This document shows, piece by piece, positions 17,362 to 62,414 of a stretch of DNA of 64,000 nt. Under the pieces are notes generated by a model. The model was not told the origin of the DNA, searched no databases, and was given only the letters and a program-made list of their open reading frames with translations. The number at the start of each line of letters is the position of its first letter. The first letter of the stretch is position 1. The position numbers and the translations under genes were made by a program. This stretch comes from Oscillospiraceae bacterium (lineage in GTDB: Bacteria; Bacillota; Clostridia; Oscillospirales; CAG-382), in assembly GCA_015064485.1 (NCBI GenBank), contig SVSD01000005.1, forward strand, positions 42,255 through 106,254, in the 5' to 3' direction.

Positions 17362-17628
17362 TTTTAAAGGCGTTGACGAAGAGTAAATGTAATCGAAGCC
17401 TCAAGAGAAATGGCGGTTGGTGCGAGCCATAGGTATAATTTACATTTTTGTAGCTTCCGAGCCGGGAGGAAGAAAAGATTTTTGAGTAGACCCTCCCCGA
17501 GACAACTGCGTTAGTGTTAAAGGGATTGCTTGATCCTGAAGAGGCAGACTTTTCTGCAATTTGAGTGGTACCGCGGGTATTATGTACTCGTCTCAAAGTA
17601 AATTACACTTTGGGACGATATTTTTTTG
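17362..17628 (+). ncRNA. T-box leader, predicted Val (GUA) specifier
   Basis: AGAGA and GGTGnnA stem I motifs; AATTTGAGTGGTACCGCGG T-box at 17558-17576; terminator with T-run; GTA at 17450-17452 in the specifier position. Confidence 0.85.
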
Positions 17629-17647
17629 TCCCGCAACGGAGGTTATT

Positions 17648-41443: not shown

Positions 41444-43294
41444 ATGACTAAAAGACTCAGTATATTTTTAATTTTATTTTCTTTGATCGTTTCCCTTGCT
41501 GTTCCTTGTATAACAGCTGAAGAAAAAGACGATCCGACATTTTATGTTAGCCAAGGAGCAATATCCGGTATCGGTACGCAAGATTCCCCTTTCGGCTCAA
41601 TTGAAGAAGCTCTGAAGGTCATAGGAGGCCTTGATGCTGAAATTGTGATAAATGGCGAGTATGATATATCTCAATCGGATTTAAGTGCTTGGAACGGCCT
41701 TATAACCTTGTCAGGCGTTGGAGACGCTGTTATCACAAGCGATCCCGGCGTAAAACTTAGTATTCCCGGAAAAATTTCCTTCAAAAATATAAAATTTGAT
41801 CTCGGAGAAAATTCAGCCTTTCTTTGCAACGGAAAAAGCATTTCTTTTGATATTGGAAACAATTCCTTTGACGGCGCAATTTATCTTTCGTCATCAAATT
41901 TTGCAAACTATGCAATATGCAGCGATATTACCGTAATAAGCGGAAATATCGATAAAGTAATTCTCGGCAATTCTCAATCCGAACTTGAAAAGTATACTGC
42001 ATCAGGAACCGTCGATATAAATGTTAAAGGCGGCAGAATAAAAGAGTTATATCTTTCACCGGAAATTGTGCCTGCAAAAAAATATACTATTTCAGGCGGC
42101 ATAAATGTAATATGCTCTGCAGGCGGTAAGATCGATAACATTTCGTATAATAAAGATTCGTTATATACAATCAAAGGCGGATTTACTTTAATTTTTAATG
42201 AAGGAGTAGGTCTCCCCGAGAAATTCGAATATCCCGATTCTTATGAAGATACCTATATATTAACAACAGGAAAAGGCGGCAGCCTCCTCCCGACAAACGA
42301 TATCGGTATTTTCGAAATAAAAACAGATTCAAGCAAAGCACTCGCATTAAACGGCAAAGCGATGAATGTAAAGGACACTTTAGCAATAGACTCGGGAAGT
42401 TATAATTTTGAATGGGTAGATAAAACAAGTAAAGATTCGGACGACGATTACATACCTGCGATTAACGATATTCCGGTTACGGTTTATTATAATCCCAACG
42501 GCGGTTTAAATCCTCCTGCGGCAAAAGAAGCTTTAAAAGGCTCTTCCATAACAATAAGCTCAAAAATACCGACAAATGACGGCTACAGATTTTTAGGATG
42601 GTCTTTGGACAAGGACGCAAAAGAAGCAGCATATCAGGCGGGCGATAAATTTGTTTGCAAAGATAATGTTTCACTATATGCAGTTTGGGAAAAGATAACT
42701 GAATTTACCCTCACTTACTCTGCGCAAGGAGCATATTATGTTCCCGAAAAAGTAAGTGTTACGGTCGGCGAGGAAGTGAAGCTTTCAACCATCATTCCAA
42801 GTAAAAAAGGATATGTTTTCCTCGGATGGGCGTTAAAAAACGATGCTGAAACACCGAAATTTACCGCAGGCGAAAAAATCACCCTTCAAAATGATACAAC
42901 ACTTTATGCTGTATGGAAGCAAGGTGTTGAAATAGTCCTTACAATCAATTCAAATATAGCAAAGGTATCGGGTGTGAGCATCGAAAACGATGTAGCTCCG
43001 ATCATTGAAAATGACAGAACAATGCTCCCCGCAAGATTTGTAGCTGAAAACCTTGATGCAGAAGTCAAATGGGATGACAGCAACAGAACTGTTATCATAA
43101 AAACCGAAGATACGGAAATACTTATTCCGATAGACTCGGATACAGCCAAAATAAACGGAAAAGAAGTAAAGCTTGATTCCCCTGCTTTTATACGCAACGA
43201 CAGAACTTATACCCCTGTACGATTCATATGCGAAGCCCTCGGCGCTGAGGTTGGCTGGAACGATGCAGAAAGAAAAGTTACGATAACAAAATAA
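41444..43294 (+). CDS. Secreted protein with two InlB B-type repeats and a C-terminal copper amine oxidase stalk domain
   Basis: Signal peptide; two GY.FLGW...LYAVW repeats; APIIENDRTMLPARFVAE domain. Confidence 0.85.
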   Translation: MTKRLSIFLILFSLIVSLAVPCITAEEKDDPTFYVSQGAISGIGTQDSPFGSIEEALKVIGGLDAEIVINGEYDISQSDLSAWNGLITLSGVGDAVITSDPGVKLSIPGKISFKNIKFDLGENSAFLCNGKSISFDIGNNSFDGAIYLSSSNFANYAICSDITVISGNIDKVILGNSQSELEKYTASGTVDINVKGGRIKELYLSPEIVPAKKYTISGGINVICSAGGKIDNISYNKDSLYTIKGGFTLIFNEGVGLPEKFEYPDSYEDTYILTTGKGGSLLPTNDIGIFEIKTDSSKALALNGKAMNVKDTLAIDSGSYNFEWVDKTSKDSDDDYIPAINDIPVTVYYNPNGGLNPPAAKEALKGSSITISSKIPTNDGYRFLGWSLDKDAKEAAYQAGDKFVCKDNVSLYAVWEKITEFTLTYSAQGAYYVPEKVSVTVGEEVKLSTIIPSKKGYVFLGWALKNDAETPKFTAGEKITLQNDTTLYAVWKQGVEIVLTINSNIAKVSGVSIENDVAPIIENDRTMLPARFVAENLDAEVKWDDSNRTVIIKTEDTEILIPIDSDTAKINGKEVKLDSPAFIRNDRTYTPVRFICEALGAEVGWNDAERKVTITK

Positions 43295-43329
43295 AAGCAT
43301 TGATATATAAAAAGAGCTGTTATTTTGAT

Positions 43330-43372
43330 ATGCACCACAAAAGTCGAACACTTTTGGTGGTGCATATTTTTT
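43330..43372 (+). terminator. Intrinsic terminator-like hairpin
   Basis: atgcacca-c-aaaagt...acttttggtggtgcat followed by a T-run. Confidence 0.65.
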
Positions 43373-43440
43373 ATGATATAACAATACGGCGAATAATGAA
43401 CTGCTCTTTATTATGTCTATTACAGCCTCGTTTATCACAA

Positions 43441-43478
43441 AAAGCGGAGTGTCCAAAAGGACACTCCGCCGTTTTTTA
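43441..43478. terminator. Intrinsic terminator
   Basis: gcggagtgtcc-aaaa-ggacactccgc between convergent genes. Confidence 0.75.
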
Positions 43479-43488
43479 TTTGGGAATA

Positions 43489-46400
43489 TCAGCCGTTTGC
43501 GTTTTCTACAGCATTAATTACATTTTCTGTAAGATATGTCTTTGTGTATACAGATTCAGTAGAATCTTCTGCACAAGCAAGTTTTGCGATATCATATACA
43601 TTTGCTGCAACCATTTCGCCGTAGTAAGTTACTTCTTTACCGTTTTCAATTACTGTTACATAAGGAACGACACAATAGTTTGTTGTATAGTTCTTCTTAG
43701 CGATATCAGTAAGACATACAGTAAACTTAACTGTTTCATCATCCATAGAGAAGAGTTTTACAGCAGGAACCACAACAGCATTTTCGGTATTCTTTGTAAG
43801 CTCACCATCAAGCATTGCTTCAGGAATTATTATAGAACCGAAGCCTACAGCTGTATCTGCATAGGTATCAGGATGGTCAAGTGTATCATAAAGCGATCTC
43901 GGAATAGCGCTGATGAAACGAAGTCCCTGTTTAATGTCTGTGTCTTCTTCTGTAGGTATACGGATCTGAACACCGACAAAAGACAATCTGTCGTCAACAT
44001 TGGAAATCTGAGGAACAAGAATCATACCGGGTATAATTTCTGTATCACCAGAATATATGTCGCCGCTTTCATCTGCCCATCCGGCAAATATGCCTACTCC
44101 GTCATAATCGGGAAGATCGGAAATTGTATTGATATCGAGATACTTCACATCATAGCTGCCTGCAGGAAGATTGAAGGTATAGTTGGAGTAATCTGTATAT
44201 GCAAAAGTTGCATCTTTTTGAGTAGACTTAGTTGTATCAAGAGTAAACAACGAACGGATTGTAAGACGCTTGCTGTCATCTTTAATTTTAATCTTTATTA
44301 CATGTTTGCCGGAATCAAGTCCTTCAACAAGTTTAACAGGTGCATGAGAAGAGCTTTCCTTCTCAACATATTCAGAACCGTCAACAGATATCATAAAATA
44401 GTTGCCTGTGTAGTAATCGCTCCACAAAGCAAGTTCTGTACCTTCGAATTCGAATGCAAAGATGTCGCTTGTGCTGTCGAGGATAAACTTACCAACAGAA
44501 TCAGATACTGCGGAGTAAGAAAGTCCGCTGTCGCGTGTAACACCTGTACCGCCGAGAGTTTCGGATTTCGCAAGGAGTTCTTCTGTGGGCTGGTAGTGGG
44601 TTCTGTTACCGTCCATAAGTGCATTTGCACTTACTGCGGGAAGATCATCATTTCTTTCTCTCAAGCCTGTATAATCTGTGCAGAAGAGGCTGTTATACAT
44701 ATACTCTTCGACTACATCATAATAAAGTCTGTAACCGGAATCCTTGAGATGAACCTTATCAATAGAATACTTATCCCATTCGGATGTGCTGTAATTTACA
44801 TATTCAGCAAGTCTTCTTCCGACATGGAGTGTTGTGCAGTTATACTTTGCTGCAACATCTTCATGCGCCTGACCCTGTTCGTGAAGCTTACCTTCAGAGT
44901 TTATCGAAAGGAGATCTCTGTCGGTTACGATAACAAATACGATATCGGTTTCAGGAAGAGCCTGTTTCACTTCACGCACTATTGTTTCTACCTGAGAATA
45001 TGCACTGTCATAAGATGACTTGAAGTACTTATCGTTAATTGCATATTCAAGGAACAAGAGGTCGGGCTTTCTTGCAATAATGTCTGTTTCCAAGCGGTAA
45101 GTACCGAGGAATGAACCGGATTCGCCGCAAGCTCTGTTAATATTAGAAATATTAGCTTCGGGGAAATTGTCTACAAGCCACTGGCTTATAAGGCCTCTCC
45201 ATGAGAGCTTATCAGGATCAGACGAACCGTATCCGTCTGTCATAGAACCGCCGAAATAAAGTACTGTAAGTTCTTCATCATTCTTGATCTTATTATATGT
45301 GTTTGTAAGAGGCTTACGGTAGTTGATGAATTCTTCGAATTCATTTCTCTCGTGCCATGTAATGGGAGTAACATCTGTTGAAGAATACTCATCAGCAACA
45401 TAAATTGTACCATCATCAGCAACAGCAATAGGTGTCTTACCGTAAGGAGCCTTAACTCCGAAAGTACCCGCTGTTTCTGTCTGATCAATATATGCTGTTT
45501 TATCGGAAGAGCTTACATACCATGTGTTATCGGTTGTAATAGCATTGTCAATTGTATTACCGTTTGAAATAATTTCAAGAGATGCGAATTCATTTCCTTC
45601 GGTTGTGATATTTGTAATGTCAGAGTTGTCAGCTGTAATCTTAATTACTGAAGAAGAAGCTGTGTCACCGATATTAATATCAAGCTGTGAATTTTCAGCG
45701 ATAACATATGTGTTTTCGCCGGAACCTATATTGATAGAAGCGCCAATGCCGTTTATTGCAACCTTATCGTCTGCAGTTGCATTGCCTGTTGCAATATTTA
45801 TATTGTTGCAAACAACATTTTCACCGATTTCAAAAATATGTCCGTTTGTATTGACAACTGATGTACCAATAGAAATTGTTATATCAGAAATTTTTGTATT
45901 GCCGAGAATTTCCGTATCATTTACAAATTCAAGAGTGGAATCGGAAGAAACGCCCTTGATTGTAACGAGGCTTTCAAATTCTTCAGAAACATCATAAACA
46001 GCATTTTCAATAACATAAATACAACCTGTTTTTCCGGAAAGTTCCTTAACAGCCTTGTCTATTGTCTTGAAAGGAGCATCTTCAGAACCGTTGCCGGAGT
46101 CATCACCTGTAGAATCAACATAGAAGAAGTTAGGATTTACAAGTTTTGCGGTAAGCATACCACATCCGTCATCGTCCCATCCAAGGAATTCGAAGCCGTT
46201 GGGAAGCTCAGGAGTAGGCATATCGTCTGCTGAGAACTTTTCGGTCCACTGAACATCAACGGCGCCGGGAATAAGCTTAATATTACCGTTTGTACCGTAG
46301 TAAATGTTAAGACCTGTATCACTGATGTAATAAGGAGTAAGATCACCGCTGTATGCGAAAGTGCCGGCAGTATCGGTATGTGCCAGGAAGTTATCTTCAT

Positions 46401-49400
46401 TTTCGGATCTTACGATATACTTGCCGCCCTGATACTGAACCTTAACAAAGCCGTCAACACCGTTTTCGGAATCATCATACCATTCTGTTATGGAGTTGCC
46501 GTCGAGATCTTTAGCTTCGTCAAAGTAGTATGTGCCGCCGTTTGCAATAAGTTCAAACGAACCCTGTGCTTTCTGAGCAGAATTATCAGTATGTGAATAG
46601 CTCCAGAATTCACCGCCGTTTACGGTAATTCTTACGCTGTCTACCCAATATGTACCTGTTTCGGCACCTGTGAGAAGCTGACGAACAATACCGCCGTTTA
46701 CGGTAAAGTTGAAATCGCCTTCCATCTGATTTTCTGCGTGTGTAACGATCTTATGAACATATTTACCGCTGACAGTAACATTTTCGCTGTTACCCGCATA
46801 AATAACATTCTGCTGAGTCATATCAACAGTGCCGCCGAGTTCAAAATCGAAGCCGTTTGTAATGATTGTCTGAGCTTCCTTGAAATCAGCTTTCATTACA
46901 ACAGGACCGTTGAGGGTTATTGTATTGTCAGAGCCCGAAATTGTACCGCCGTTATAGGATTCATAGAATATTGTCTGAGTATGTGCGGTTTCATCAAATG
47001 TATAATCACCGTCAACATAGATAAGACCGTATGCATCGCTTGCTTCGATCTTTTCAATCGCAGATGCGAGTGTCAAAAGTGCATTCTCATAAGAACGACC
47101 ATCGTTATCATCAGAACCGTTTACTGAAACATAATATTTCGGAATTACATTTATATATTTAGGAGTCATAGTACCGTTATCGTTAACAACCCATTCGTCA
47201 AATTGATTATATTTGTCAAGATCGTCGGGCCTTGCAACGCTTTGCTTTATGCTTTCGAGACTGTCAGCAAATCTGATTGTATACTCGCCTGCACAAGGTA
47301 CGCTTATAGTTTCATCACCAAAATATACAGTATTCTTATCTTCAGACTGTACAAATGCATATGCCATACCTGTAGGAACAGTAACTGTATATGTACCTGC
47401 TACATCTGTTGTATCAAGAGCGCCGTCTTCTTCAACTACGATGTCATATCTGGGAAGTGCTGTGAATGTATCGTTCACAATAGTAGCACCATTGTTATAG
47501 ATAATCTGAACAGCCTTACCTTCAGCTATAGACATAAGCGTTGAGCTTGTCTTGAAGTTGTTGATTGTTGTACCGTTAAGAACGATATTTACATTATCTT
47601 CAAATGTAACTCCGTTTTCAACTCTACCGCCGACAAAGCTGAAATTAAAGTTATTAAGAACACCTGTCGGTAAAATCAACTTTACTTCATCTGTGAAGAA
47701 GTGGTTACCTTCAACAACACCGGGAACAGGATCGTAAGTGTTCCAGCTCTGAATATCTGTTGCCCAACCAAGAGGAGAAAGTGTTCCTACTCTTGCAAGA
47801 GTTGCAGCGTCAAATTTAATTGTTCCACCGCCGCCCTGAGCTGTTCCGTAGTTTGCCTGGAACATACCTGCGTAAATTTCAACCATGGAAGCTTGAGCTT
47901 CTGTATTTCCTTCATTGTTGTATCTGAATTTTACATTCTTGAATTCAACATCGTGACCTGTTGCAAATACGGGTACTGCATATGCTGAACGGTTGATACC
48001 GATGTCAACACCGTTGAATACTACAGGACCGCCAAGTCTCATGACAACGAAACGATTCTGAGTCGCATTTGCAGACCAGATGATAGGTCTTGCGGACGCA
48101 TCAGCACTTTCGAAAACAATAGTCGCTTTGTGCTGAACAACCTTGGACATATCCTTGTTTGCTTCAACTGCGTTGTATTCGTCAACGCTTGTAGGTGTCC
48201 AGTTGTAAGGATTGAAGTAAATAGCCTGGTCGCCACCGTAGTTGCCGTTTTCACCTTCAGCGGGAGTGATAATTTTGACTGTTATCTCTTTACCTTCAAC
48301 ATTAAGTCCTGCCGCATCAAGAGCCGCTACGATTTCAGCAACCGTTCCAAACGGAGCAGCTTCTGAACCGTCACCGTCTACAGCGCCGCCCTTAATGTAG
48401 TACACACCATCAAAATCTTCATTTTGTTCGATGAAGGTTACATTGTATGTACCTGCCATATTTACTGTAAGTGTATTTCCAACACTTGTAAATGTACCGT
48501 TATCACCTGTCGCTACAGCAACATTCTTTCCTTCGGGGAATGTTACGCTGTATACACCGGTTTCGGAAGTTGTATCAAGCTTACCGCCCTGTTCAACATA
48601 GATGTCGTATCTCGAAAGCTTATCATAGCCAAAAGTATCGCTTGAAATGTAAGCGCCGTCATTATAGATGATCTGTACAGCCTTGCCTTCTGCCATAGAC
48701 ATCTGTGTTGAGCTTGTATAGAAGCTCTTGATATTTGTACCGTTAAGAACGATGTTTACATTATCTTCAAATGTAACGCCATTTTCTGTTCTGCCGCCAA
48801 CAAAGCTGAATGCAAAGTCAGCAAGTGTGCCAGCGTCTAAAACAAGCTTAACTTCATCTGTGAAGTAGTGGTTGGCCTGAACGACTCCGGGAACAGGATC
48901 CCAGCCGTTCCAGTTCTGGATATCAACCGCCCATCCCAAGGGAGAGAGGTACTTTATTCTGCCAAGAGTTGCAGCGTCCATCTTGATTGTTCCGCCGCCA
49001 CCGTTACCGGCACCGTTCGAGTTTGCCTGGAAGATACCGGAATAAATTTCAACATAACCTGCCGGGGCTTCTGTATTGCCTTCGTTGTTATATCTGAACT
49101 TTACATCGATAAATTCAAGATCATAACCGGATGCAAATACAGGAACTGCATAGTTAGAACGGTTGATACCAAGGTCGATACCGTTGAATACTGTAGGACC
49201 GCCAAGTCTCAAAGCCTTGAAACGATCCTGCTCTGTGTGAGCCATCCAAATGATGGGTCTTACATCTTCAGCAGCACTTTCAAAAACGAGCGTTGCCTTG
49301 TGTCCGGTAACATTAACCATTGTCTTGCCGCTTTCAATAGCGTTCCATTCGTCAACACTACTAGGACACCAGTCGGAAGCATAGTTGAAATAAAGAGCCT

Positions 49401-49668
49401 GATCGCCGCCGTAGTTACCGTTTTCACCGTCTGCGGGTGCGATAACCTTGACTGTTACCTCATTACCTGCAACATTAAGGCCTGCCGCATCAAGAGCCGC
49501 TACGATTTCCGCAACCGTTCCAAACGGAGCAGCTTCGGAGCCGTCACCGCCTGTAGCGCCGCCTTTGAGGTAGTAAACTGTTGATTCTTCCGCCATTACA
49601 CCAAACGACACCGGAACAGATGCACATATGATGCACAGCGTAAGAATTAATGATAAAAATTTTTTCAT
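43489..49668 (-). CDS. Giant secreted multi-repeat protein with SGNH/GDSL hydrolase domain
   Basis: Signal peptide MKKFLSL (ATG 49668); four repeated modules; SGNH blocks FGGSMTDG, NRACG, EYAIND, DKVH; about 2,060 aa. Confidence 0.85.
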   Translation of the reverse strand: MKKFLSLILTLCIICASVPVSFGVMAEESTVYYLKGGATGGDGSEAAPFGTVAEIVAALDAAGLNVAGNEVTVKVIAPADGENGNYGGDQALYFNYASDWCPSSVDEWNAIESGKTMVNVTGHKATLVFESAAEDVRPIIWMAHTEQDRFKALRLGGPTVFNGIDLGINRSNYAVPVFASGYDLEFIDVKFRYNNEGNTEAPAGYVEIYSGIFQANSNGAGNGGGGTIKMDAATLGRIKYLSPLGWAVDIQNWNGWDPVPGVVQANHYFTDEVKLVLDAGTLADFAFSFVGGRTENGVTFEDNVNIVLNGTNIKSFYTSSTQMSMAEGKAVQIIYNDGAYISSDTFGYDKLSRYDIYVEQGGKLDTTSETGVYSVTFPEGKNVAVATGDNGTFTSVGNTLTVNMAGTYNVTFIEQNEDFDGVYYIKGGAVDGDGSEAAPFGTVAEIVAALDAAGLNVEGKEITVKIITPAEGENGNYGGDQAIYFNPYNWTPTSVDEYNAVEANKDMSKVVQHKATIVFESADASARPIIWSANATQNRFVVMRLGGPVVFNGVDIGINRSAYAVPVFATGHDVEFKNVKFRYNNEGNTEAQASMVEIYAGMFQANYGTAQGGGGTIKFDAATLARVGTLSPLGWATDIQSWNTYDPVPGVVEGNHFFTDEVKLILPTGVLNNFNFSFVGGRVENGVTFEDNVNIVLNGTTINNFKTSSTLMSIAEGKAVQIIYNNGATIVNDTFTALPRYDIVVEEDGALDTTDVAGTYTVTVPTGMAYAFVQSEDKNTVYFGDETISVPCAGEYTIRFADSLESIKQSVARPDDLDKYNQFDEWVVNDNGTMTPKYINVIPKYYVSVNGSDDNDGRSYENALLTLASAIEKIEASDAYGLIYVDGDYTFDETAHTQTIFYESYNGGTISGSDNTITLNGPVVMKADFKEAQTIITNGFDFELGGTVDMTQQNVIYAGNSENVTVSGKYVHKIVTHAENQMEGDFNFTVNGGIVRQLLTGAETGTYWVDSVRITVNGGEFWSYSHTDNSAQKAQGSFELIANGGTYYFDEAKDLDGNSITEWYDDSENGVDGFVKVQYQGGKYIVRSENEDNFLAHTDTAGTFAYSGDLTPYYISDTGLNIYYGTNGNIKLIPGAVDVQWTEKFSADDMPTPELPNGFEFLGWDDDGCGMLTAKLVNPNFFYVDSTGDDSGNGSEDAPFKTIDKAVKELSGKTGCIYVIENAVYDVSEEFESLVTIKGVSSDSTLEFVNDTEILGNTKISDITISIGTSVVNTNGHIFEIGENVVCNNINIATGNATADDKVAINGIGASINIGSGENTYVIAENSQLDINIGDTASSSVIKITADNSDITNITTEGNEFASLEIISNGNTIDNAITTDNTWYVSSSDKTAYIDQTETAGTFGVKAPYGKTPIAVADDGTIYVADEYSSTDVTPITWHERNEFEEFINYRKPLTNTYNKIKNDEELTVLYFGGSMTDGYGSSDPDKLSWRGLISQWLVDNFPEANISNINRACGESGSFLGTYRLETDIIARKPDLLFLEYAINDKYFKSSYDSAYSQVETIVREVKQALPETDIVFVIVTDRDLLSINSEGKLHEQGQAHEDVAAKYNCTTLHVGRRLAEYVNYSTSEWDKYSIDKVHLKDSGYRLYYDVVEEYMYNSLFCTDYTGLRERNDDLPAVSANALMDGNRTHYQPTEELLAKSETLGGTGVTRDSGLSYSAVSDSVGKFILDSTSDIFAFEFEGTELALWSDYYTGNYFMISVDGSEYVEKESSSHAPVKLVEGLDSGKHVIKIKIKDDSKRLTIRSLFTLDTTKSTQKDATFAYTDYSNYTFNLPAGSYDVKYLDINTISDLPDYDGVGIFAGWADESGDIYSGDTEIIPGMILVPQISNVDDRLSFVGVQIRIPTEEDTDIKQGLRFISAIPRSLYDTLDHPDTYADTAVGFGSIIIPEAMLDGELTKNTENAVVVPAVKLFSMDDETVKFTVCLTDIAKKNYTTNYCVVPYVTVIENGKEVTYYGEMVAANVYDIAKLACAEDSTESVYTKTYLTENVINAVENANG
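47250..49580 (-). repeat. Intragenic tandem duplication, period 1,173 bp (391 codons)
   Basis: gccgcatcaagagccgctacgatttc occurs at 48311 and 49484; peptide blocks GDGSEAAPFGTVAEIVAALDAAGLNV and ENGVTFEDNVNIVLNGT are repeated; outer limits approximate. Confidence 0.85.
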
Positions 49669-49946
49669 ACTGTATATTCCCCTTTCGAATATATATACAA
49701 TATAATTATAATACAATAATACAATTTTTGCAATACTATTGTGCAATTTTACTACATATTTTTGCACTATAAATATAGAATTTTGTTCGAAAGATTATAA
49801 ATGTTGTATAAAACACAGCAAATTTCACCTAAAAATGTTAAATCGATCCTGTAAATGCGTTATATAATTAAAGAACTCATTATTTTTAAACAGAAAACGA
49901 CCCGTGCAAAAAGCACGGGCCGTTAAATTTTTATAGGACAGAATTA

Positions 49947-55733: not shown

Positions 55734-56528
55734 ATGCTATTAAAAAAAATCGCTGTCATAGGCGGCGATGCCCGTTTTGCGGTATGTGCAGAACTTTTTG
55801 CAAAAAAAGGCTGCGAATGTGCGGTTTTCGGACTTGAAAAAGCCGAAAATCTCTTGATGGCAACCAAAAGTGCAACAATATACGATGCTGTTTCGGGTTG
55901 TGATGCTATAATTCTTCCGATACCTGTGTCGAAAGACAATGATCAGGCTTTCTCGCCTCTATCGGATTTTAAAATAAGTTTGACCGATATTTTAGAAAAT
56001 ATAAAGGGCGATCCGATCATTTTTATCGGTCAAAGCAAGGAATCCGTTCAAAATTCACAATTGTCAGAATTTGATATTATAACATATACAGCATCAAAAA
56101 CTTTTGCATTGCTCGGAAGCGTTCCGACTGCCGAATGTGCCATATCAACCGCTACTTATCACAGCCGTAAATGCTGCTGCAATTCAAGATACCTTATCGT
56201 AGGATGCGGTAATGTCGGTAAACGCTTAGGTCTGCTTTCAAAGAATATGGGTGCGGATGTTTTTATATCCGCAAGAAAAAAAGAAGATCTCGCGTGGATA
56301 GAAGCTCACGGAATGATCCCTTTGAAAACATACGATCTTTCGTCAGAAAAGGTTGAATTTGATGTAATATTCAATACAGTCCCCCACATGGTTCTGGGAG
56401 AACAAGTTCTTAAAAATCTTAAAGGTTATCCTTTGATTATAGAACTTGCTTCAAAACCCTACGGGGCGGGTTTTAAACAAAAAAGGGAATATAAAAAAGT
56501 CCGGAGTGCAAAGAAAAAAGATAACTGA
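55734..56528 (+). CDS. spoVFA: Dipicolinate synthase subunit A, 5' fragment (interrupted after codon 243; the rest of the ORF is element-derived read-through)
   Basis: IAVIGGDAR, ILPIP, VPTAE, GCGNVG, VIFNTVP, IIELASKPYG; homology stops there and the conserved GLPGK C-terminus is found at 61711-61857. Confidence 0.92.
   Translation: MLLKKIAVIGGDARFAVCAELFAKKGCECAVFGLEKAENLLMATKSATIYDAVSGCDAIILPIPVSKDNDQAFSPLSDFKISLTDILENIKGDPIIFIGQSKESVQNSQLSEFDIITYTASKTFALLGSVPTAECAISTATYHSRKCCCNSRYLIVGCGNVGKRLGLLSKNMGADVFISARKKEDLAWIEAHGMIPLKTYDLSSEKVEFDVIFNTVPHMVLGEQVLKNLKGYPLIIELASKPYGAGFKQKREYKKVRSAKKKDN
56453..56477 (+). repeat. Left recombination site (attL-like)
   Basis: aaaaccc-tacGGggc-gggttttaaa; imperfect direct repeat of 61701-61725; dyad centred on GG 56463-56464. 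Confidence 0.85.
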
Positions 56529-56659: not shown

Positions 56660-58264
56660 TTATTTACTTCCGAGATTTTGTTTTGCGTCAACTAAAACTT
56701 TTCTGTCATAGCAAGCAAACATTTTATCAACCTCATCCTTGTCGGGCTTTTTAGTAATAAGGCTCACAACAGGAACGAGTATAAGTCCGCCCACCATAGC
56801 AAAAACACCGGAGTAAAGTGAGTTTGTAAATACAAAGCTCAAGAATCCTTCGGGGAAGGAAAGTCCGCAAATATCCTTTACAAGCTGAACGATTTCAACA
56901 CCGGTACCGAAAATGAAGCTCACAACAACTGCGCTCTTTGTAACGCCCTTCCAGTACAAACCGTAAAGGAAAGGAGCAAGGAATGCACCGGCAAGCGCGC
57001 CCCATGATACACCCATCATCTGAGCTATAAAAGTAGCTCCCGGGAAGCTGTCTTTAACTATTGCAATTACAGCAGATACAACCACAAAGAAAAGAACGAA
57101 AAGTCTGAGTATCAAAAGTTTCTGTTTCTCAGAAACCTTCTTATCTCTTTTTTTCATAACAGGAACTATAACATCGAGTGTCAAAGTCGAGCTTGAAGTA
57201 AGGACAAGAGACGAAAGCGTAGACATAGATGCAGCAAGAACAAGTACAATGACCGTTGCGACAATTACAGGATTAAGTTCAGAAAGCATTGCGGGAACAA
57301 TATTATCCTTCAAAAGTTTCGAACCCACTTCGCCGTTTGCCCATATTGCGCTGTTGTTTGCGTAAAGTCTTCCGAAGCCACCGAGAAAATAACAGCCGCC
57401 CGCTACGATTATAGCAAATATCGTAGAAATTACTGTGCCTTTTTTGATTGAATCTTCGCTGTCTATTGAATAGAATTTGCCGACCATCTGAGGAAGTCCC
57501 CATGTGCCGAGAGATGTAAGTATTACAACAAACAATAAAAATACAGGGTTAGGTCCGAGGAATGACGAATAAGCACCCATAAGTCCGCTCGATCCGTTTT
57601 CGATTACGGAAAGACCTCTGTATGCTTCCATAAATCCGCCGTTGTCAACAAGAACCGCCGCAATTACCGCAACTATACCGACAAGCATAATAATGCCCTG
57701 AATAAAATCGTTTATCGCAGTTGCCATATATCCGCCGAATATTACATAAACACCTGTAAGTGCCGCCATAATGATAATAACGAGCCAGTACGGAATATTG
57801 AAAGCTGAATTGAAAAGGCTCGAAAGTCCGTTATATAACGACGCTGTATAAGGAATAAGAAAAAGAAAAACTATAACAGAAGCTATTGTTTTCAAACTGC
57901 CGGACTGATATCTTTTACCAAAAAAGTCAGGCATTGTTTTCGAGCCCAGATGCTGTGTCATAACTCTTGTTCTTCTTCCGAGAATTACCCAGGGAAGAAG
58001 CGATCCGATAAATGCATTTCCAAGACCTATCCAAGTAGATGCAAGACCGAATTCCCATCCGAACTGACCCGCATATCCGACAAAAATAACTGCCGAAAAA
58101 TACGAAGTACCGAAAGCAAAAGCCGTAAGCCAAGGACCTACCGAGCGTCCGCCAAGAACAAATCCGTCAACATTTGTTGAATGTTTTCTGCAGTATAAGC
58201 CAACGCCTATCATAATTGCAAAAAACGCTGTAAGCATTACGATCGTGATAACCGCCTTTACCAT
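56660..58264 (-). CDS. Sodium:solute symporter (SSS/PutP superfamily)
   Basis: FVLGGRSVGPW, YFSAVIFVG, GGYMATAINDFIQG, WGLPQM, AASMSTLSS; about 13 TM segments. Confidence 0.92.
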   Translation of the reverse strand: MVKAVITIVMLTAFFAIMIGVGLYCRKHSTNVDGFVLGGRSVGPWLTAFAFGTSYFSAVIFVGYAGQFGWEFGLASTWIGLGNAFIGSLLPWVILGRRTRVMTQHLGSKTMPDFFGKRYQSGSLKTIASVIVFLFLIPYTASLYNGLSSLFNSAFNIPYWLVIIIMAALTGVYVIFGGYMATAINDFIQGIIMLVGIVAVIAAVLVDNGGFMEAYRGLSVIENGSSGLMGAYSSFLGPNPVFLLFVVILTSLGTWGLPQMVGKFYSIDSEDSIKKGTVISTIFAIIVAGGCYFLGGFGRLYANNSAIWANGEVGSKLLKDNIVPAMLSELNPVIVATVIVLVLAASMSTLSSLVLTSSSTLTLDVIVPVMKKRDKKVSEKQKLLILRLFVLFFVVVSAVIAIVKDSFPGATFIAQMMGVSWGALAGAFLAPFLYGLYWKGVTKSAVVVSFIFGTGVEIVQLVKDICGLSFPEGFLSFVFTNSLYSGVFAMVGGLILVPVVSLITKKPDKDEVDKMFACYDRKVLVDAKQNLGSK

Positions 58265-58314
58265 TTTAATACCTTCTTTCATTTTTTATTTTTTATGGAA
58301 AACGGTAAAATGGT

Positions 58315-58578
58315 AAAAAAATAACCGTCCTCCAACAAAAGAGGACGGAAAAATCCGTGGTACCACCTCAATTTACCGATATGTTACCATATCAGCCTCA
58401 TCAGGCACATTCTATGCCTTATTGCTGTAACGGGCAAACCCGGCGCAGCCTACTCTTCGCATTTCGGTGCGCAGCTCACAAGATGTATTCGCCAAGTTCT
58501 TTCTTACTGTCTCTCACCGCCCGACAGCTCTCTTAAAAGGTAAGAAAAAGGCTACTTCTTCTCGGTCATCGCTTCTAT
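58315..58578 (-). ncRNA. T-box leader, predicted Tyr (UAC) specifier
   Basis: AGAGAG and GGTGAGA stem I motifs; GAA-TAC-A specifier loop (58485-58490); AAATTGAGGTGGTACCACGG T-box (58355-58374); terminator 58325-58348. Confidence 0.88.
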
Positions 58579-58585
58579 ATCGTGT

Positions 58586-58614
58586 ATTCTACTACAAAAA
58601 ACTAACCTTGTCAA
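58586..58614 (-). promoter_or_regulatory. sigmaA promoter of the Tyr T-box/symporter unit
   Basis: TTGACA-17 bp-TAGAAT; the -35 hexamer overlaps the recombinase stop codon. Confidence 0.75.
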
Positions 58615-59510
58615 GTGTTTTTTGCATTTTTATTAAATCTTTTATTTACCTCCGAAAAAGTTATTTCGTCAACAATAGCTTCGTGTGTTCCGCATACTGT
58701 TATCAGATCGTTTTTTGAGTTTTTATATCTCTTTTCAGTCTTATAATTTATCTTTTTTTCAAATCCTTGGGTAATATCTCCTTTGTATGTAGGATTAGTA
58801 AGAATTCTTTTTATCATCACACTGTTCCAGGCATTGCTTTTTCTTCGATTATCCCTTTTCAAAGACGAAGGCGTAGCAATACCTTCTGCCGTAAGCTCTT
58901 TTGCAATCAACAGCATACTTTTTCCTTCAAGAAATCCTCTATAAATTCTTAAGACCGTATCTTTTGTATTTTTATCGGGAACAAGCTTTGATGGGTCCTT
59001 TTCATCTTTTGTGTAACCGTACGGCGCTGAACTTCCTATAAACTTTCCCGCTCTGCGCCTTGAATCAAGTGCACATCGAACCTTTCTGCTTATATCTTTT
59101 GCATACATATCATTGAAAACAGCTCTGAAAGGTATCATATCGTTTCCGCCGGATTCTGACATAGTATCAACGCCGTCATTGACAGCTATATACCGTATGC
59201 CGTTTTCGGGGAAAAACCTTTCTATATACTCCCCTGTTTCGATATAATCTCTGCCAAGGCGGGACATATCTTTTGTTATTATACATAAAAACTTCTTTGA
59301 AAGAGCATCATTAATCATTTTTTCAAATGACGGACGCCTGAAATTTGTGCCGCTGTAACCGTCGTCAACATATTCTGCAATTATTGTAAAATTGTTTTTG
59401 TTACAATAGTTTTCAAGGAACATTCTTTGAGAAGCGATGCTGTCAGACTCCCCTTTTACTCCGTCATCTTTTGAAAGCCTTAGATATATCGCACAAGCCT
59501 CGTTTTCCAT
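58611..59510 (-). CDS. Serine site-specific recombinase (resolvase catalytic domain + recombinase domain), SpoIVCA-like but short
   Basis: IYLRLS catalytic Ser, YVDDGYSGTNF.RP, KDMSRLGRD, APYGY, ILTNPTYKG, HEAIV; ends at 299 aa with no Cys zinc ribbon. Confidence 0.93.
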   Translation of the reverse strand: MENEACAIYLRLSKDDGVKGESDSIASQRMFLENYCNKNNFTIIAEYVDDGYSGTNFRRPSFEKMINDALSKKFLCIITKDMSRLGRDYIETGEYIERFFPENGIRYIAVNDGVDTMSESGGNDMIPFRAVFNDMYAKDISRKVRCALDSRRRAGKFIGSSAPYGYTKDEKDPSKLVPDKNTKDTVLRIYRGFLEGKSMLLIAKELTAEGIATPSSLKRDNRRKSNAWNSVMIKRILTNPTYKGDITQGFEKKINYKTEKRYKNSKNDLITVCGTHEAIVDEITFSEVNKRFNKNAKNT

Positions 59511-59569
59511 ACAAAAAACCTCACGAACACACTGTAAAACAGTATATTCGCAAGGTCTTAATTATTTTA

Positions 59570-59995
59570 CTATTTGTTGTTTTTATTTTCTTTTTTATCT
59601 TTTCGCTTTGCTTTTATTATTTTTATATCAGATTTTGCTTTTTGATAGAGATCTCTTAATATTCCGAGAGTTTTTTCGTCATTCGGAAACAGGAATTTCA
59701 AAAGCCCGAGTGCGATTGCAACAGTCACTATTTTTTCCGGCGAAAACGGGAACCATAAGATCGTAAGATATGCGCCTGATACCGCAACCATCCACTCAAT
59801 GCCAAAATATACGCCGAACGCCATAAAAACATATGCCCAGCCGTTTGTTATAAGCCAGCCTATCCCAAAGCACAGCAAAAACCTCGGATTAAAAATAAGA
59901 AAAAACAGCTTTATGATGAAGTTTTTTATAAATACTGCAGCTTTTGAATGAGATAGCTTCAAAAAAAACTCTTTGATACTTCTTTTGTCTTTCAA
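59570..59995 (-). CDS. Hypothetical membrane protein
   Basis: 141 aa, 2-3 TM segments, Lys-rich tail; has its own sigmaA-like promoter. Confidence 0.75.
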   Translation of the reverse strand: MKDKRSIKEFFLKLSHSKAAVFIKNFIIKLFFLIFNPRFLLCFGIGWLITNGWAYVFMAFGVYFGIEWMVAVSGAYLTILWFPFSPEKIVTVAIALGLLKFLFPNDEKTLGILRDLYQKAKSDIKIIKAKRKDKKENKNNK

Positions 59996-60076: not shown

Positions 60077-60111
60077 AAAAAAGTCCTCCCCTTTTCGTAA
60101 ATAAGGGGAGG
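60077..60111 (-). terminator. serS terminator
   Basis: cctcccctt...aaggggagg hairpin with a T-run on the minus strand. Confidence 0.75.
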
Positions 60112-60117
60112 GAAATT

Positions 60118-61404
60118 TTATTTCTTGGGAACTATCTTTTCAGCGCCGCCCATATAAGGACGAAGAGCGACAGGAATATTTACACTTCCGTCAGCATTAA
60201 GATTGTTTTCAAGGAAGGCTATAAGCATTCTGGGAGGAGCGACAACTGTGTTGTTAAGGGTATGAGCAAGATATTTGGAATCTTTTCCGTTTACTCTTAT
60301 CTTAAGTCTTCTTGCCTGTGCATCGCCAAGGTTAGAACAGCTGCCTACTTCAAAATATTTCTGCTGTCTGGGAGACCACGCCTCAACATCAACAGATTTT
60401 ACCTTAAGATCTGCAAGGTCACCCGAGCAACATTCAAGAGTTCTTACCGGAATATCCATCGAACGGAAAAGATCAACGGTATTCTGCCAGAGCTTGTCAA
60501 ACCACATCGGGCTTTCTTCGGGCTTACATACAACGATCATTTCCTGTTTTTCAAACTGATGGATGCGGTATACACCTCGCTCTTCGATACCGTGAGCGCC
60601 CTTTTCCTTGCGGAAACAGGGAGAATAGCTTGTAAGAGTCTGAGGAAGCTGTTCTTCGGGGATTATCTGGTCGATAAACTTACCGATCATAGAGTGTTCG
60701 GAAGTACCTATAAGATAAAGATCCTCTCCTTCGATCTTATACATCATAGCTTCCATTTCCGCAAAGCTCATAACTCCGGTTACAACATCTGAACGGATCA
60801 TAAAAGGAGGTACACAATATGTGAATCCGCGGTCGATCATAAAATCACGAGCATAAGAAATTACCGCAGAATGAAGACGGGCAATATCACCCATAAGATA
60901 ATAAAAGCCGTTGCCTGCAACTCTTCTTGCGCTGTCAAGGTCGATACCGTTAAAGCTTTCCATAATATCTGTGTGATAAGGAATCTCGTAATCGGGAGTT
61001 ACGGGTTCACCGTATCTCTGAACTTCAACATTTTCGCTGTCATCTTTACCGATGGGAACTGTAGGGTCGATGATCTGAGGAATTATCATCATAATCTTTT
61101 TGATTTTTTCCTCGTATTCGGCTTCAAGAGCTTCGCACTCAGCAAGTCTTGCTGCCTGCTGACCGACAATTTTTTTCATTTCTTCAGCTTCGTCTTTTTT
61201 GCCCTGTCCCATAAGAGCACCGATCATCTTGGAGCACTTGTTTCGTTCAGCTCTGAGTCCGTCAGCTTCAAGCTTTACGGCTCTTGAGTTTTTATCGAGC
61301 TCTATTACCTCGTCAACAAGTTCCAGCTTATGATCCTGAAACTTGTTTTTGATATTTTGCTTTACCACATCAGGGTTTTCACGCAAAAACTTAATATCAA
61401 TCAT
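60118..61404 (-). CDS. serS: Seryl-tRNA synthetase
   Basis: MIDIKFLREN N-terminal coiled coil, LIGTSEH, CFRKEKG..RIHQFEKQE, EVGSCSN, HTLNNT..PPR; full length, 428 aa. Confidence 0.97.
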   Translation of the reverse strand: MIDIKFLRENPDVVKQNIKNKFQDHKLELVDEVIELDKNSRAVKLEADGLRAERNKCSKMIGALMGQGKKDEAEEMKKIVGQQAARLAECEALEAEYEEKIKKIMMIIPQIIDPTVPIGKDDSENVEVQRYGEPVTPDYEIPYHTDIMESFNGIDLDSARRVAGNGFYYLMGDIARLHSAVISYARDFMIDRGFTYCVPPFMIRSDVVTGVMSFAEMEAMMYKIEGEDLYLIGTSEHSMIGKFIDQIIPEEQLPQTLTSYSPCFRKEKGAHGIEERGVYRIHQFEKQEMIVVCKPEESPMWFDKLWQNTVDLFRSMDIPVRTLECCSGDLADLKVKSVDVEAWSPRQQKYFEVGSCSNLGDAQARRLKIRVNGKDSKYLAHTLNNTVVAPPRMLIAFLENNLNADGSVNIPVALRPYMGGAEKIVPKK

Positions 61405-61433
61405 TTTTTCTTCCTCCGAAAATAGTTTTTATA

Positions 61434-61648
61434 AAAAAAGAGTTCTTCCCCACAAATATGGGACGAAGAACTCCGTGTTGCCACCCAAATTGCCGTATAT
61501 ACGGCCACTCAAAAAAGCTGTAAGGGGCTTATCCCCAAGACTCATCGTCTTATGCTCCGAAAGCGGAAAAGCAAAAAACCGACAGCCGATCACACCTTCC
61601 TCGGCCTCTCTTTCGAACAGTCAATTGCCGTTTCTTTCATCATAGCTT
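61434..61648 (-). ncRNA. T-box leader of serS, predicted Ser (UCC) specifier
   Basis: AGAGAG/GGTGTGA motifs; TCC at 61565-61567; AATTTGGGTGGCAACACGG (61473-61491), whose UGGC matches the GCCA end of tRNA-Ser; terminator present. Confidence 0.88.
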
Positions 61649-61652
61649 TAAT

Positions 61653-61681
61653 ATTATACACCAAAAAACCACAAAATGCAA
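61653..61681 (-). promoter_or_regulatory. sigmaA promoter of serS
   Basis: TTGCAT-17 bp-TATAAT, lying just inside the right recombination site. Confidence 0.75.
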
Positions 61682-61697
61682 GATAAATTTTCAACAA

Positions 61698-61722
61698 TTT
61701 AAAACCCGGCGGGGTGGATTTT
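61698..61722 (+). repeat. Right recombination site (attR-like)
   Basis: tttaaaaccc-ggcGGggt-ggatttt; dyad centred on GG 61711-61712. Confidence 0.85.
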
Positions 61723-61857
61723 GAGTGTGCAGAAAAAATAGGACTGAAAACTGTTATAGCCTCAGGACTTCCGGGAAAATATACACCGGTAACTGCAGGA
61801 GAAATAGTTTACAGGTGCATATGTGATGCTCTTGAAGAAAGGGGTTTTGAAATATGA
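61711..61857 (+). CDS. spoVFA: Dipicolinate synthase subunit A, 3' fragment (48 codons, no start of its own)
   Basis: GVDFECAEKIGLKTVIASGLPGKYTPVTAGEIVYRCICDALEERGFEI*, matching the conserved SpoVFA C-terminus; the stop overlaps the spoVFB start (ATGA). Confidence 0.9.
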   Translation, partial: GVDFECAEKIGLKTVIASGLPGKYTPVTAGEIVYRCICDALEERGFEI

Positions 61858-62414
61858 TAGGTTTTTGCCTCACAGGCTCGTTTTGCTCATTTGAGAAAAG
61901 TATAAATGTTATGAAAAATCTTTCTCAAAAGTATGAAATCTTACCGATCATGTCGCAGAATGCATATAATTTGGATACAAAATTCGGAAAAGCAGAAGAT
62001 TTCAGAAGCAAAATAAAGGAAATATGTAATAAAGATATAATCCATACCATAACAGAGGCAGAACCGATAGGACCAGCCGTAAAACTCGACTGTCTTGTAG
62101 TCTGTCCGTGTACGGGAAATACATTATCAAAAATAGCCTGCGGCATTACAGATACAAGCGCCACAATGGCAATAAAAGCACAGCTCAGAAACGAAAGACC
62201 GGTGCTTCTTGCAATTGCATCAAACGACGGACTTTCCGGTTCTTCGGTTTCTGTGTCAAAGCTTTTGCAAAGGGAAAATATTTACTTTGTCCCCTTCTCG
62301 CAGGACTCCCCTTTTAAAAAGCCCCGTTCTGTTGTATGCGATTTTGATAAAACCGGAGAAGCTCTGTCCCTTGCCCTTGAAGGCAAACAAATTCAGCCTA
62401 TACTTTACAGTTGA
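61854..62414 (+). CDS. spoVFB: Dipicolinate synthase subunit B
   Basis: GFCLTGSFC, AEPIGP, PCTGNTLSK, NDGL, YFVPFSQD..KKPRS, QIQP. Confidence 0.95.
   Translation: MIGFCLTGSFCSFEKSINVMKNLSQKYEILPIMSQNAYNLDTKFGKAEDFRSKIKEICNKDIIHTITEAEPIGPAVKLDCLVVCPCTGNTLSKIACGITDTSATMAIKAQLRNERPVLLAIASNDGLSGSSVSVSKLLQRENIYFVPFSQDSPFKKPRSVVCDFDKTGEALSLALEGKQIQPILYS

Follow-up and report, generated by a model that had tools for sequence, protein, structure and literature searches.

In a 64,000-nucleotide stretch of DNA from an Oscillospiraceae bacterium (the window, which is C24:42255-106254 of a 1.60-Mb metagenome-assembled genome in 28 contigs, here G000), the gene for dipicolinate synthase subunit A, dpaA (also spoVFA), is interrupted by a 5,248-bp element, and this element carries the only seryl-tRNA synthetase (SerRS) gene, serS, that was found in the assembly. 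It is probably a non-phage, domesticated member of the gene-intervening elements, a kind that includes skin in sigK, vfbin in spoVFB and gin in gerE. More tentatively, and at somewhat less than even confidence, we propose that it has become an obligatory germ-line element by capture of the sole SerRS, which would make it the first such element with an essential housekeeping gene, and that it is cut out by a "half" serine recombinase (catalytic plus recombinase domain) acting on near-symmetrical sites of about 28 bp and silenced in growing cells by a terminator hairpin that hides its ribosome binding site (RBS).

The element and its recombination sites

As shown in Table 1, the two parts of dpaA are separated by four minus-strand genes encoding a sodium:solute symporter (SSF) family transporter, a serine recombinase, a 141-amino-acid (aa) membrane protein and SerRS. 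All four are on one strand, opposite to dpaA. The length of the element is the distance between two CGGGG cores, one in each attachment (att) site, and the gene is split in its codons between ...SKPY and GVDF.... The interrupted 5' frame extends into the element and stops at 56528. The 5' and 3' parts have the identical codon phase at both cores, and recombination within the core is predicted to give ...KPYGVDFE... in a 291-codon dpaA; the uninterrupted dpaA of a relative (G002) reads SKPYGVDF at the split point, equal to the predicted junction. The element-side arms at 61698-61708 and 56467-56477 form a perfect 11-bp inverted repeat, and the four att half-sites are all mutually similar.

A preliminary description of the window had placed a full-length serS with a Ser T-box and a terminator wholly between two recombination sites, with its promoter 16 bp inside the right site, and had seen no phage, replication or toxin-antitoxin genes. 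These statements were borne out. The gene and its signals lie between the two cores, 16 bases separate the -35 box of serS from the element-side arm of attR (start 61698), and Pfam, NCBIfam and PHROGs scans of the four element open reading frames (ORFs) gave no match to families of phage structural, replication or toxin-antitoxin proteins, recombinase-integrase matches aside.

The element is present at the identical dpaA codon in seven of the ten genomes of the genus (G000 and, among the other genomes G001-G009, in G001, G003 and G005-G008), dpaA being intact in G002, G004 and G009. Both dpaA parts and dpaB are open and in phase in all seven element-bearing species despite saturated synonymous divergence (dS). 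The element-side att arms are likewise kept in the seven species, and the adjacent non-coding DNA is not. serS is inside the element in five of the seven (G000 and G005-G008); G001 and G003 have elements without it. A chimeric contig that put serS between the dpaA halves is extremely improbable even for a metagenome-assembled source, as the same gene order recurs in G005, G006 and G008, each assembled separately, and in G007, where it is spread over two contigs. Moreover, contigs from public runs match attL (four runs) and attR (three runs) with 0-3 differences, although one run may be the source sample. The public runs with the window stretch are from faeces and gut metagenomes.

We propose that in the sporulating mother cell the 299-aa recombinase of the element would join attL and attR, and that this excision would rebuild the in-frame 291-codon dpaA beside dpaB so that dipicolinate is made, while the forespore chromosome would retain the element. 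The terminal mother cell would tolerate excision, with promoter, leader and serS together on the excised circle. Sporulation genes detected in G000 include those for Spo0A, SpoIVA and SpoVAC/Eb. Ongoing excision is inferred from dpaA halves that have stayed intact, from the conservation of the att arms and from the purifying selection on the recombinase.

Table 1. Positions in the window of the element in dpaA, its genes and its flanking features
Feature	Position	Strand	Remarks
dpaA (spoVFA) 5' part	55734..56465	+	244 codons to crossover; Pfam DpaA_N; from translation and tblastn to relatives
attL	56450..56479		gene-side arm, core CGGGG 56462-56466, element-side arm CGGGTTTTAAA 56467-56477
Terminator-like stem-loop	56620..56647		between attL and transporter gene 3' end
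SSF family transporter	56660..58282	-	540 aa; Pfam SSF
Transporter T-box leader	58338..58578	-	Rfam 130.6 bits; specifier UAC (Tyr)
Promoter-like site of transporter T-box	58614-58586	-	promoter scan
Serine recombinase	58611..59510	-	299 aa; Resolvase and Recombinase domains
Hairpin	59516..59558	-	20 pairs; 3' arm contains recombinase GAGG ribosome binding site; then T-run, ATG
Predicted membrane ORF	59570..59995	-	141 aa; Lys-rich tail
Promoter-like site of 141-aa ORF	60068-60040	-	TTGAAA-17-TATAAT
serS terminator	60089..60112	-	stem-loop then T-run, directly past serS stop codon
serS	60118..61404	-	428 aa, type-A SerRS; sole serS found in assembly
serS T-box leader (RF00230)	61456..61652	-	specifier UCC (Ser)
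serS promoter	61653..61681	-	-35 TTGCAT 61681-61676, 17-nt spacer, -10 TATAAT 61658-61653
attR	61698..61725		element-side arm TTTAAAACCCG 61698-61708, core CGGGG 61710-61714, then gene-side arm
dpaA 3' part	61714..61857	+	47 codons plus stop
dpaB	61854-62414		directly after dpaA 3' part; pfk next

A single serS gene and its history

SerRS has the Seryl_tRNA_N (PF02403) and class-II core (PF00587) domains and matches TIGR00414 with 401.3 bits (cut-off 301.65) over model positions 1-418 of 418. Its T-box leader passes the Rfam gathering score marginally (93.6 against 93 bits). The specifier UCC and the purine after it are invariant in 8/8 aligned leaders, and a tRNA-Ser(GGA) gene is on contig C15 of G000. 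The serS promoter was read by eye; with 8/12 matches to the consensus (TTGACA/TATAAT) it is below the 9-of-12 rule of our promoter scan and was not listed by it. Its boxes are present in all eight aligned leaders of this serS type, including leaders outside the element.

The preliminary description had proposed a search for a second serS, a serS phylogeny against the species tree and a comparison of the cargo between the spoVFA halves in relatives, and all of these were run. Exactly one serS was found in each of 41 related genomes, G000 included. The encoded enzymes are of two types, type A (71-100% identical to that of G000) in 24 genomes and type B (31-37%) in 17, with one type per genome. 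The type-A query gave a single match in G000, and five type-B queries from relatives matched only the element-borne gene, with no second serS and no remnant.

The position of serS in relatives points to a lost native copy. With 1.5-kb flanks, serS adjoins a parB-like gene in 14 of 29 loci (8 type-A and all 6 type-B). The order in G001 and G009 is parB, type-B serS and a 215-aa gene; G003 has a type-B serS with the same downstream genes, its parB being on a separate contig. In G000, G002 and G004-G008 (7/7) parB is directly followed by the 215-aa gene, without serS. Because this slot is empty in all seven members of the clade, the native type-B serS was evidently lost there. In G000 the slot is assembled (C25:5086-6656; compare L057 and L089) and the parB and 215-aa ORFs overlap. 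Types A and B share the parB-adjacent slot across genera of the order (serS loci L012-L033), which suggests repeated in-place displacement. The empty slot also bears on the idea that a second serS sits in the unassembled 6% of the genome and that the element is dispensable. Such a gap is real in an assembly of 28 contigs that is 94.25% complete (0.43% contaminated), yet we consider a hidden copy very improbable: the ancestral place between parB and the 215-aa gene is covered and holds no serS, the type-B queries give no other match or remnant, and each of the other four species whose serS is in the element gave a single copy (assemblies 80-97% complete).

The trees agree with an old association. 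In a tree of MnmG, G000, G008, (G002, G004) and (G005, G006, G007) are united with a Shimodaira-Hasegawa-like approximate likelihood-ratio (SH-aLRT) value of 97, G001/G003 and G009 are outside and G012, from a different genus, is distant. The SerRS tree repeats these groupings; it recovers the clade as (G008, (G002, G004)) and (G000, (G005, G006, G007)) with SH-aLRT values of 85-90, and G012 is its sister (96). The G+C content at third codon positions (GC3) of serS is 0.40/0.67/0.65/0.61 in G000/G006/G005/G007, against 0.38/0.65/0.64/0.63 for pfk. Between G000 and the others dS is 1.2-2.5 for serS and 1.5-1.7 for pfk, and within G005-G007 the dS of serS (0.36-0.60) equals that of pfk (0.33-0.66). 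The element-borne arrangement is judged to be old and vertically inherited, because serS dS is saturated and GC3 is host-matched.

A recent horizontal transfer of serS into G000 had been suspected from the identities of 95% for SerRS versus 53% for DpaA. It was rejected on the saturated dS and host-like GC3; SerRS evolves slowly (non-synonymous divergence, dN, 0.04 versus 0.10 for pfk). A phage origin of serS was also considered. The type-A SerRS matches phrog_16140 (function unknown) at full length with 553 bits, more than the 401 bits on the bacterial serS model, and is 81-84% identical to proteins of three faecal contigs recorded as "UNVERIFIED Bacteriophage sp.", the other 109 phage records being below 60%. 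In the one such contig that was inspected, the neighbours resemble ordinary G000 chromosomal genes; the phage origin was rejected, and these matches, which look like bacterial DNA in virome data, were treated as such.

An older transfer is likely. G012 and G000 are 93% identical in SerRS, 72% in MnmG and 29% in DpaA, and the G012 serS (L040, G012:C12) is outside the parB slot, so that one old transfer of serS between the G012 lineage and the clade is the likely explanation. The core element, consisting of the Tyr-T-box transporter and the recombinase, is older than the serS cargo and, in our reading, older than the clade. In this reading the clade acquired at its base a type-A serS akin to the serS of the G012 lineage, and loss of the native type-B copy followed; in the clade the type-A serS, with its promoter, T-box and terminator, came to be placed between the recombinase and attR. 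The position in the element is probably ancestral for the clade, and G002 and G004 would later have lost the element, serS having moved elsewhere. These last two steps depend on nodes with weak support and on a species tree made from a single gene. In G002 serS adjoins a 222-aa ORF and mnmG, and its context in G004 is different again. No remnant att site was seen upstream of serS in G002, G004 or G012, where homology stops just upstream of the -35 box.

Loss of the element should be lethal to a dividing cell, because the element holds the only serS found and SerRS is essential. Germ-line loss would be counter-selected unless serS had first moved, because the dividing cell would lose its only SerRS. 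The preliminary description held that the element is locked in by this essential gene. Much of that stood: serS is the only copy found, the parB slot is empty in 7/7 and the arrangement has been kept in five species. An absolute lock did not, as dpaA is uninterrupted in G002 and G004 and their serS, of the same type, stands at another place. Nor could we uphold the view that serS is the way in which the element is kept or domesticated, since serS-less elements persist at the same codon in the basal G001 and G003. To us the lock-in looks like a side effect of gene displacement, which took place on an element that was domesticated before, and neither like the reason why the element persists nor like an evolved device. 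The data fit a ratchet with two steps, capture of a second serS and subsequent loss of the native gene.

The short recombinase and the case for excision

The recombinase has PF00239, the N-terminal catalytic domain with the serine nucleophile, at residues 7-156 and PF07508 at residues 182-295, and its catalytic motifs, YLRLS and SRLGRD, are intact in 7/7 sequences. It ends at residue 299, right past the Recombinase domain, and the zinc ribbon/coiled coil (PF13408) was not found in it; it corresponds to the first 60% of a large serine recombinase. The closest full-length relatives have about 500 aa, are 50-56% identical and carry PF13408 at about residues 312-368. One of them, of 509 aa and with PF13408 at 312-368, aligns over residues 7-289 at 56% identity. 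The large serine recombinases that have been studied rely on the zinc-ribbon/coiled-coil domain to recognise att sites, for synapsis and for directionality. From what is known of these structures, an enzyme that has no such outer DNA-binding domain would go well with the short sites seen here, which measure about 28 bp and have four half-sites that resemble one another.

These features could also mark a fossil insertion, in which the recombinase has lost its C-terminal half, excision has ceased, dpaA is permanently split and serS is an ordinary gene in dead DNA. The stop right past the Recombinase domain and the PF13408 of the 500-aa relatives speak for this, as does the ability of some clostridia to make dipicolinate without DpaAB (10.1101/2022.02.25.481979). 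We nevertheless regard a fossil as unlikely. The short form is kept at 297-304 aa in the seven species, and a dpaA that died before the species split should show stops or frameshifts across saturated dS, whereas its parts and dpaB are open and in phase; the element-side att arms are conserved and the neighbouring non-coding DNA is not. Of 21 pairs of recombinase genes, 8 allowed dN/dS to be computed and gave values of 0.08-0.22, the other 13 being saturated; the three least-saturated pairs (dS 0.88-1.57) gave 0.12-0.14. These ratios indicate that it is under purifying selection.

The short recombinase is confined to the genus in our survey: at E <= 1e-70 it was found in 7 of 151 genomes of the family, all from this genus, and in none of the 141 genomes from 14 other genera. 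A metagenome scan for its close relatives gave 80 loci, all with at most 54% identity and none with serS or the transporter. Two metagenome contigs (L100:9699-11521 and L107:1523-4172) have full-length relatives of 506 aa and 501 aa (50% and 47% identical) beside a dpaA 3' fragment at the GVDF codon; therefore dpaA-targeting elements reach beyond the genus. In L100 the recombinase stands at the edge of a stretch of more than 10 kb whose genes look metabolic (by eye, GH42- and hydrogenase-like), and no 5' part of dpaA was found within the locus.

Among the 120 best database relatives of the recombinase listed, 36 have 215-327 aa without PF13408 and 84 have 372-524 aa with it. Those of about 283-327 aa without zinc ribbon/coiled coil form a conserved clade nested among the relatives of about 500 aa.

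A strong terminator-like hairpin (-28.1 kcal/mol, z -7.2) lies directly before the start codon of the G000 recombinase. The recombinases of G005-G008 have equivalent hairpins with other stem sequences (L034, L035, L036 and L038; -20 to -37 kcal/mol), so that an RBS-covering hairpin is present in 5/5 serS-bearing elements. There is none in the serS-less G001 and G003, which have no gene upstream of the recombinase. This is consistent with silencing of the recombinase, as the hairpin would stop and silence transcripts that run on into it from serS and the membrane ORF while the cell grows. A transcript started by a sporulation promoter within the hairpin would, we speculate, leave the RBS free.

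Several points weigh against excision and lock-in as we propose them. No excision product was observed: among 15 joints listed of 45, from low-depth assembled contigs of four runs, none links the two cores, and such contigs drop rare forms. The predicted recombinase is without the zinc-ribbon/coiled-coil domain of canonical large serine recombinases, and a candidate directionality factor is absent from the minimal elements of G001 and G003. A promoter for a sporulation sigma factor could not be called with confidence upstream of the recombinase, where there are CATA/AATA-like motifs. With an assembly that is 94% complete, a second serS may sit in the missing part. The nodes that make the element-borne state ancestral have SH-aLRT values of only 85-90, and the species tree, built from MnmG alone, has a polytomy where the clade begins. 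Finally, the lock is neither necessary (the elements of G001 and G003 persist without serS) nor irreversible (G002 and G004 have an intact dpaA, with serS elsewhere).

G000 has two other serine recombinases, full-length enzymes of 556 aa (C5:13921-15591) and 552 aa (C24:459-2117). As possible helpers that act in trans on the element they were set aside: they are only 36-37% identical to the short one and are unlinked to sporulation genes. The 556-aa gene adjoins relaxase-like and ParB-like ORFs (by eye from N-termini), a neighbourhood that would suggest an integrative mobilisable element.

Cargo, known systems and other features

The cargo of the element differs among the seven species, as the proposed comparison of the spoVFA halves brought out. 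The SSF transporter is invariant (7/7), and its T-box specifier UAC is unchanged in all seven species. Its best NCBIfam match is PutP, far below equivalog cut-offs. The promoter of the transporter T-box begins at the recombinase stop codon. A tRNA-Tyr(GTA) gene is present in G000. The unchanged specifier suggests that the transporter is tyrosine-responsive. The G003 element has only transporter and recombinase (about 3 kb), and that of G001 has a GH39-like gene in addition. Elements of G000 and G007, the latter spread over two contigs, hold transporter, recombinase, membrane ORF and serS. The 141-aa membrane ORF has no family match in Pfam, NCBIfam or PHROGs, and its homologues in G005-G008 are 55-67% identical.

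G005 and G006 have the G000-type content plus a YbaK-like tRNA_edit ORF. This YbaK/ProX-like editing-domain ORF (PF04073) lies between recombinase and membrane ORF in G005, G006 and G008 (L034:6183-6722 (-); L035, L036); it is missing from the G000 element, and a 32%-identical homologue is on contig C8 of G000. The G008 element adds to the content of G005 and G006 about 12 kb with AdhE, two Fe-hydrogenase-like proteins, a PP2C phosphatase, an FAD oxidoreductase and an APH-like kinase, and a LysR-like ORF (by eye) between serS and attR; these additions are at L036:6900-18000 and L043:362-1306. The region between recombinase and attR seems to gather cargo.

Such cargo could make the element a switch that acts in the mother cell on genes related to aminoacyl-tRNA (serS, the transporter with the Tyr T-box and, in relatives, the YbaK-like deacylase); excision would alter their dosage, topology or expression late in sporulation, and selection would maintain this effect. 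The identifiable small cargo is indeed all related to tRNA charging and under T-box control, and the four genes are co-oriented, opposite to dpaA. This explanation is improbable, however, as the cargo varies (GH39 in G001; adhE, hydrogenase-like and, by eye, LysR-like ORFs in G008) and the type-A serS works outside the element in G002, G004 and G012.

Addiction of the post-segregational kind, by toxin-antitoxin modules or by essential genes on chromids, makes a lineage that loses the DNA die. Loss would kill here too, but the present element has no toxin; death would come by dilution of an essential enzyme, and the state would have arisen via loss of the chromosomal copy. In the heterocyst excision elements of cyanobacteria (XisF, fdxN element), a serine-recombinase element leaves its gene only in a terminally differentiated cell. 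The XisF/fdxN element is like ours in this removal in a terminal cell and differs in phylum, gene and cell type. The present recombinase is no XisF equivalog; it scored 63.6 bits against the NCBIfam model (cut-off 375).

The known targets of gene-intervening elements are sigK, spoVFB, spoVR, spsM, gerE and yabG. Like vfbin in spoVFB of Bacillus weihenstephanensis KBAB4 (PMC4191935), the present element interrupts the dipicolinate synthase operon, a late mother-cell gene, and encodes its own recombinase, vfbin being rearranged in sporulation. Whereas vfbin is in subunit B and is described as having phage-related genes, the present element is in subunit A, has 5.2 kb, is free of phage genes, has a recombinase of only 299 aa and holds the only serS found. 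The gin element in gerE of Bacillus cereus ATCC 10987 (PMC5595907) is also non-phage, with a serine recombinase and an att site in which an imperfect inverted repeat flanks a short core. It differs in having 31 genes, three recombinases and a required directionality factor, GirX; it is not reported to hold an essential housekeeping gene. Being identical between strains, gin has spread recently, whereas the present element is old and vertical by our estimate. Skin elements in sigK of B. subtilis, C. difficile and 13 others (10.1101/2022.02.25.481979) can likewise be small, down to 2.6 kb with two proteins, and no cargo is common to different skin elements. They differ in target gene and in their full-length SpoIVCA-type recombinases, and growth-essential cargo is not mentioned in the portion of that study at hand. 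A literature search that did not extend to supplementary tables, where split dpaA genes might be listed, gave no report of a split spoVFA/dpaA or of a gene-intervening element that carries an essential housekeeping gene.

If our proposal is true, the split of sporulation into soma and germ line lets an excisable element hold a gene that is indispensable for growth. It would be a natural case of a mobile element made irreversible by gene displacement, one copy being captured and the native one lost, and dpaA/spoVFA would join the sporulation genes that are rebuilt by DNA rearrangement. For annotation, a split dpaA in the genome of a gut clostridium need not mean loss of sporulation. A compact 299-aa recombinase, if active on short sites, would be of interest for research on serine integrases and for their use.

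Two further observations concern other parts of the window. At 17364-19942 (+), a T-box leader (98.3 bits) precedes a 793-aa ORF with HTH, cupin and AMP-binding domains, which is neither an aminoacyl-tRNA synthetase nor a transporter. At 43489-49767 (-) there is an open frame of 2092 aa, which shares DNA with two ORFs of the plus strand (616 and 572 aa, 41444-45018).

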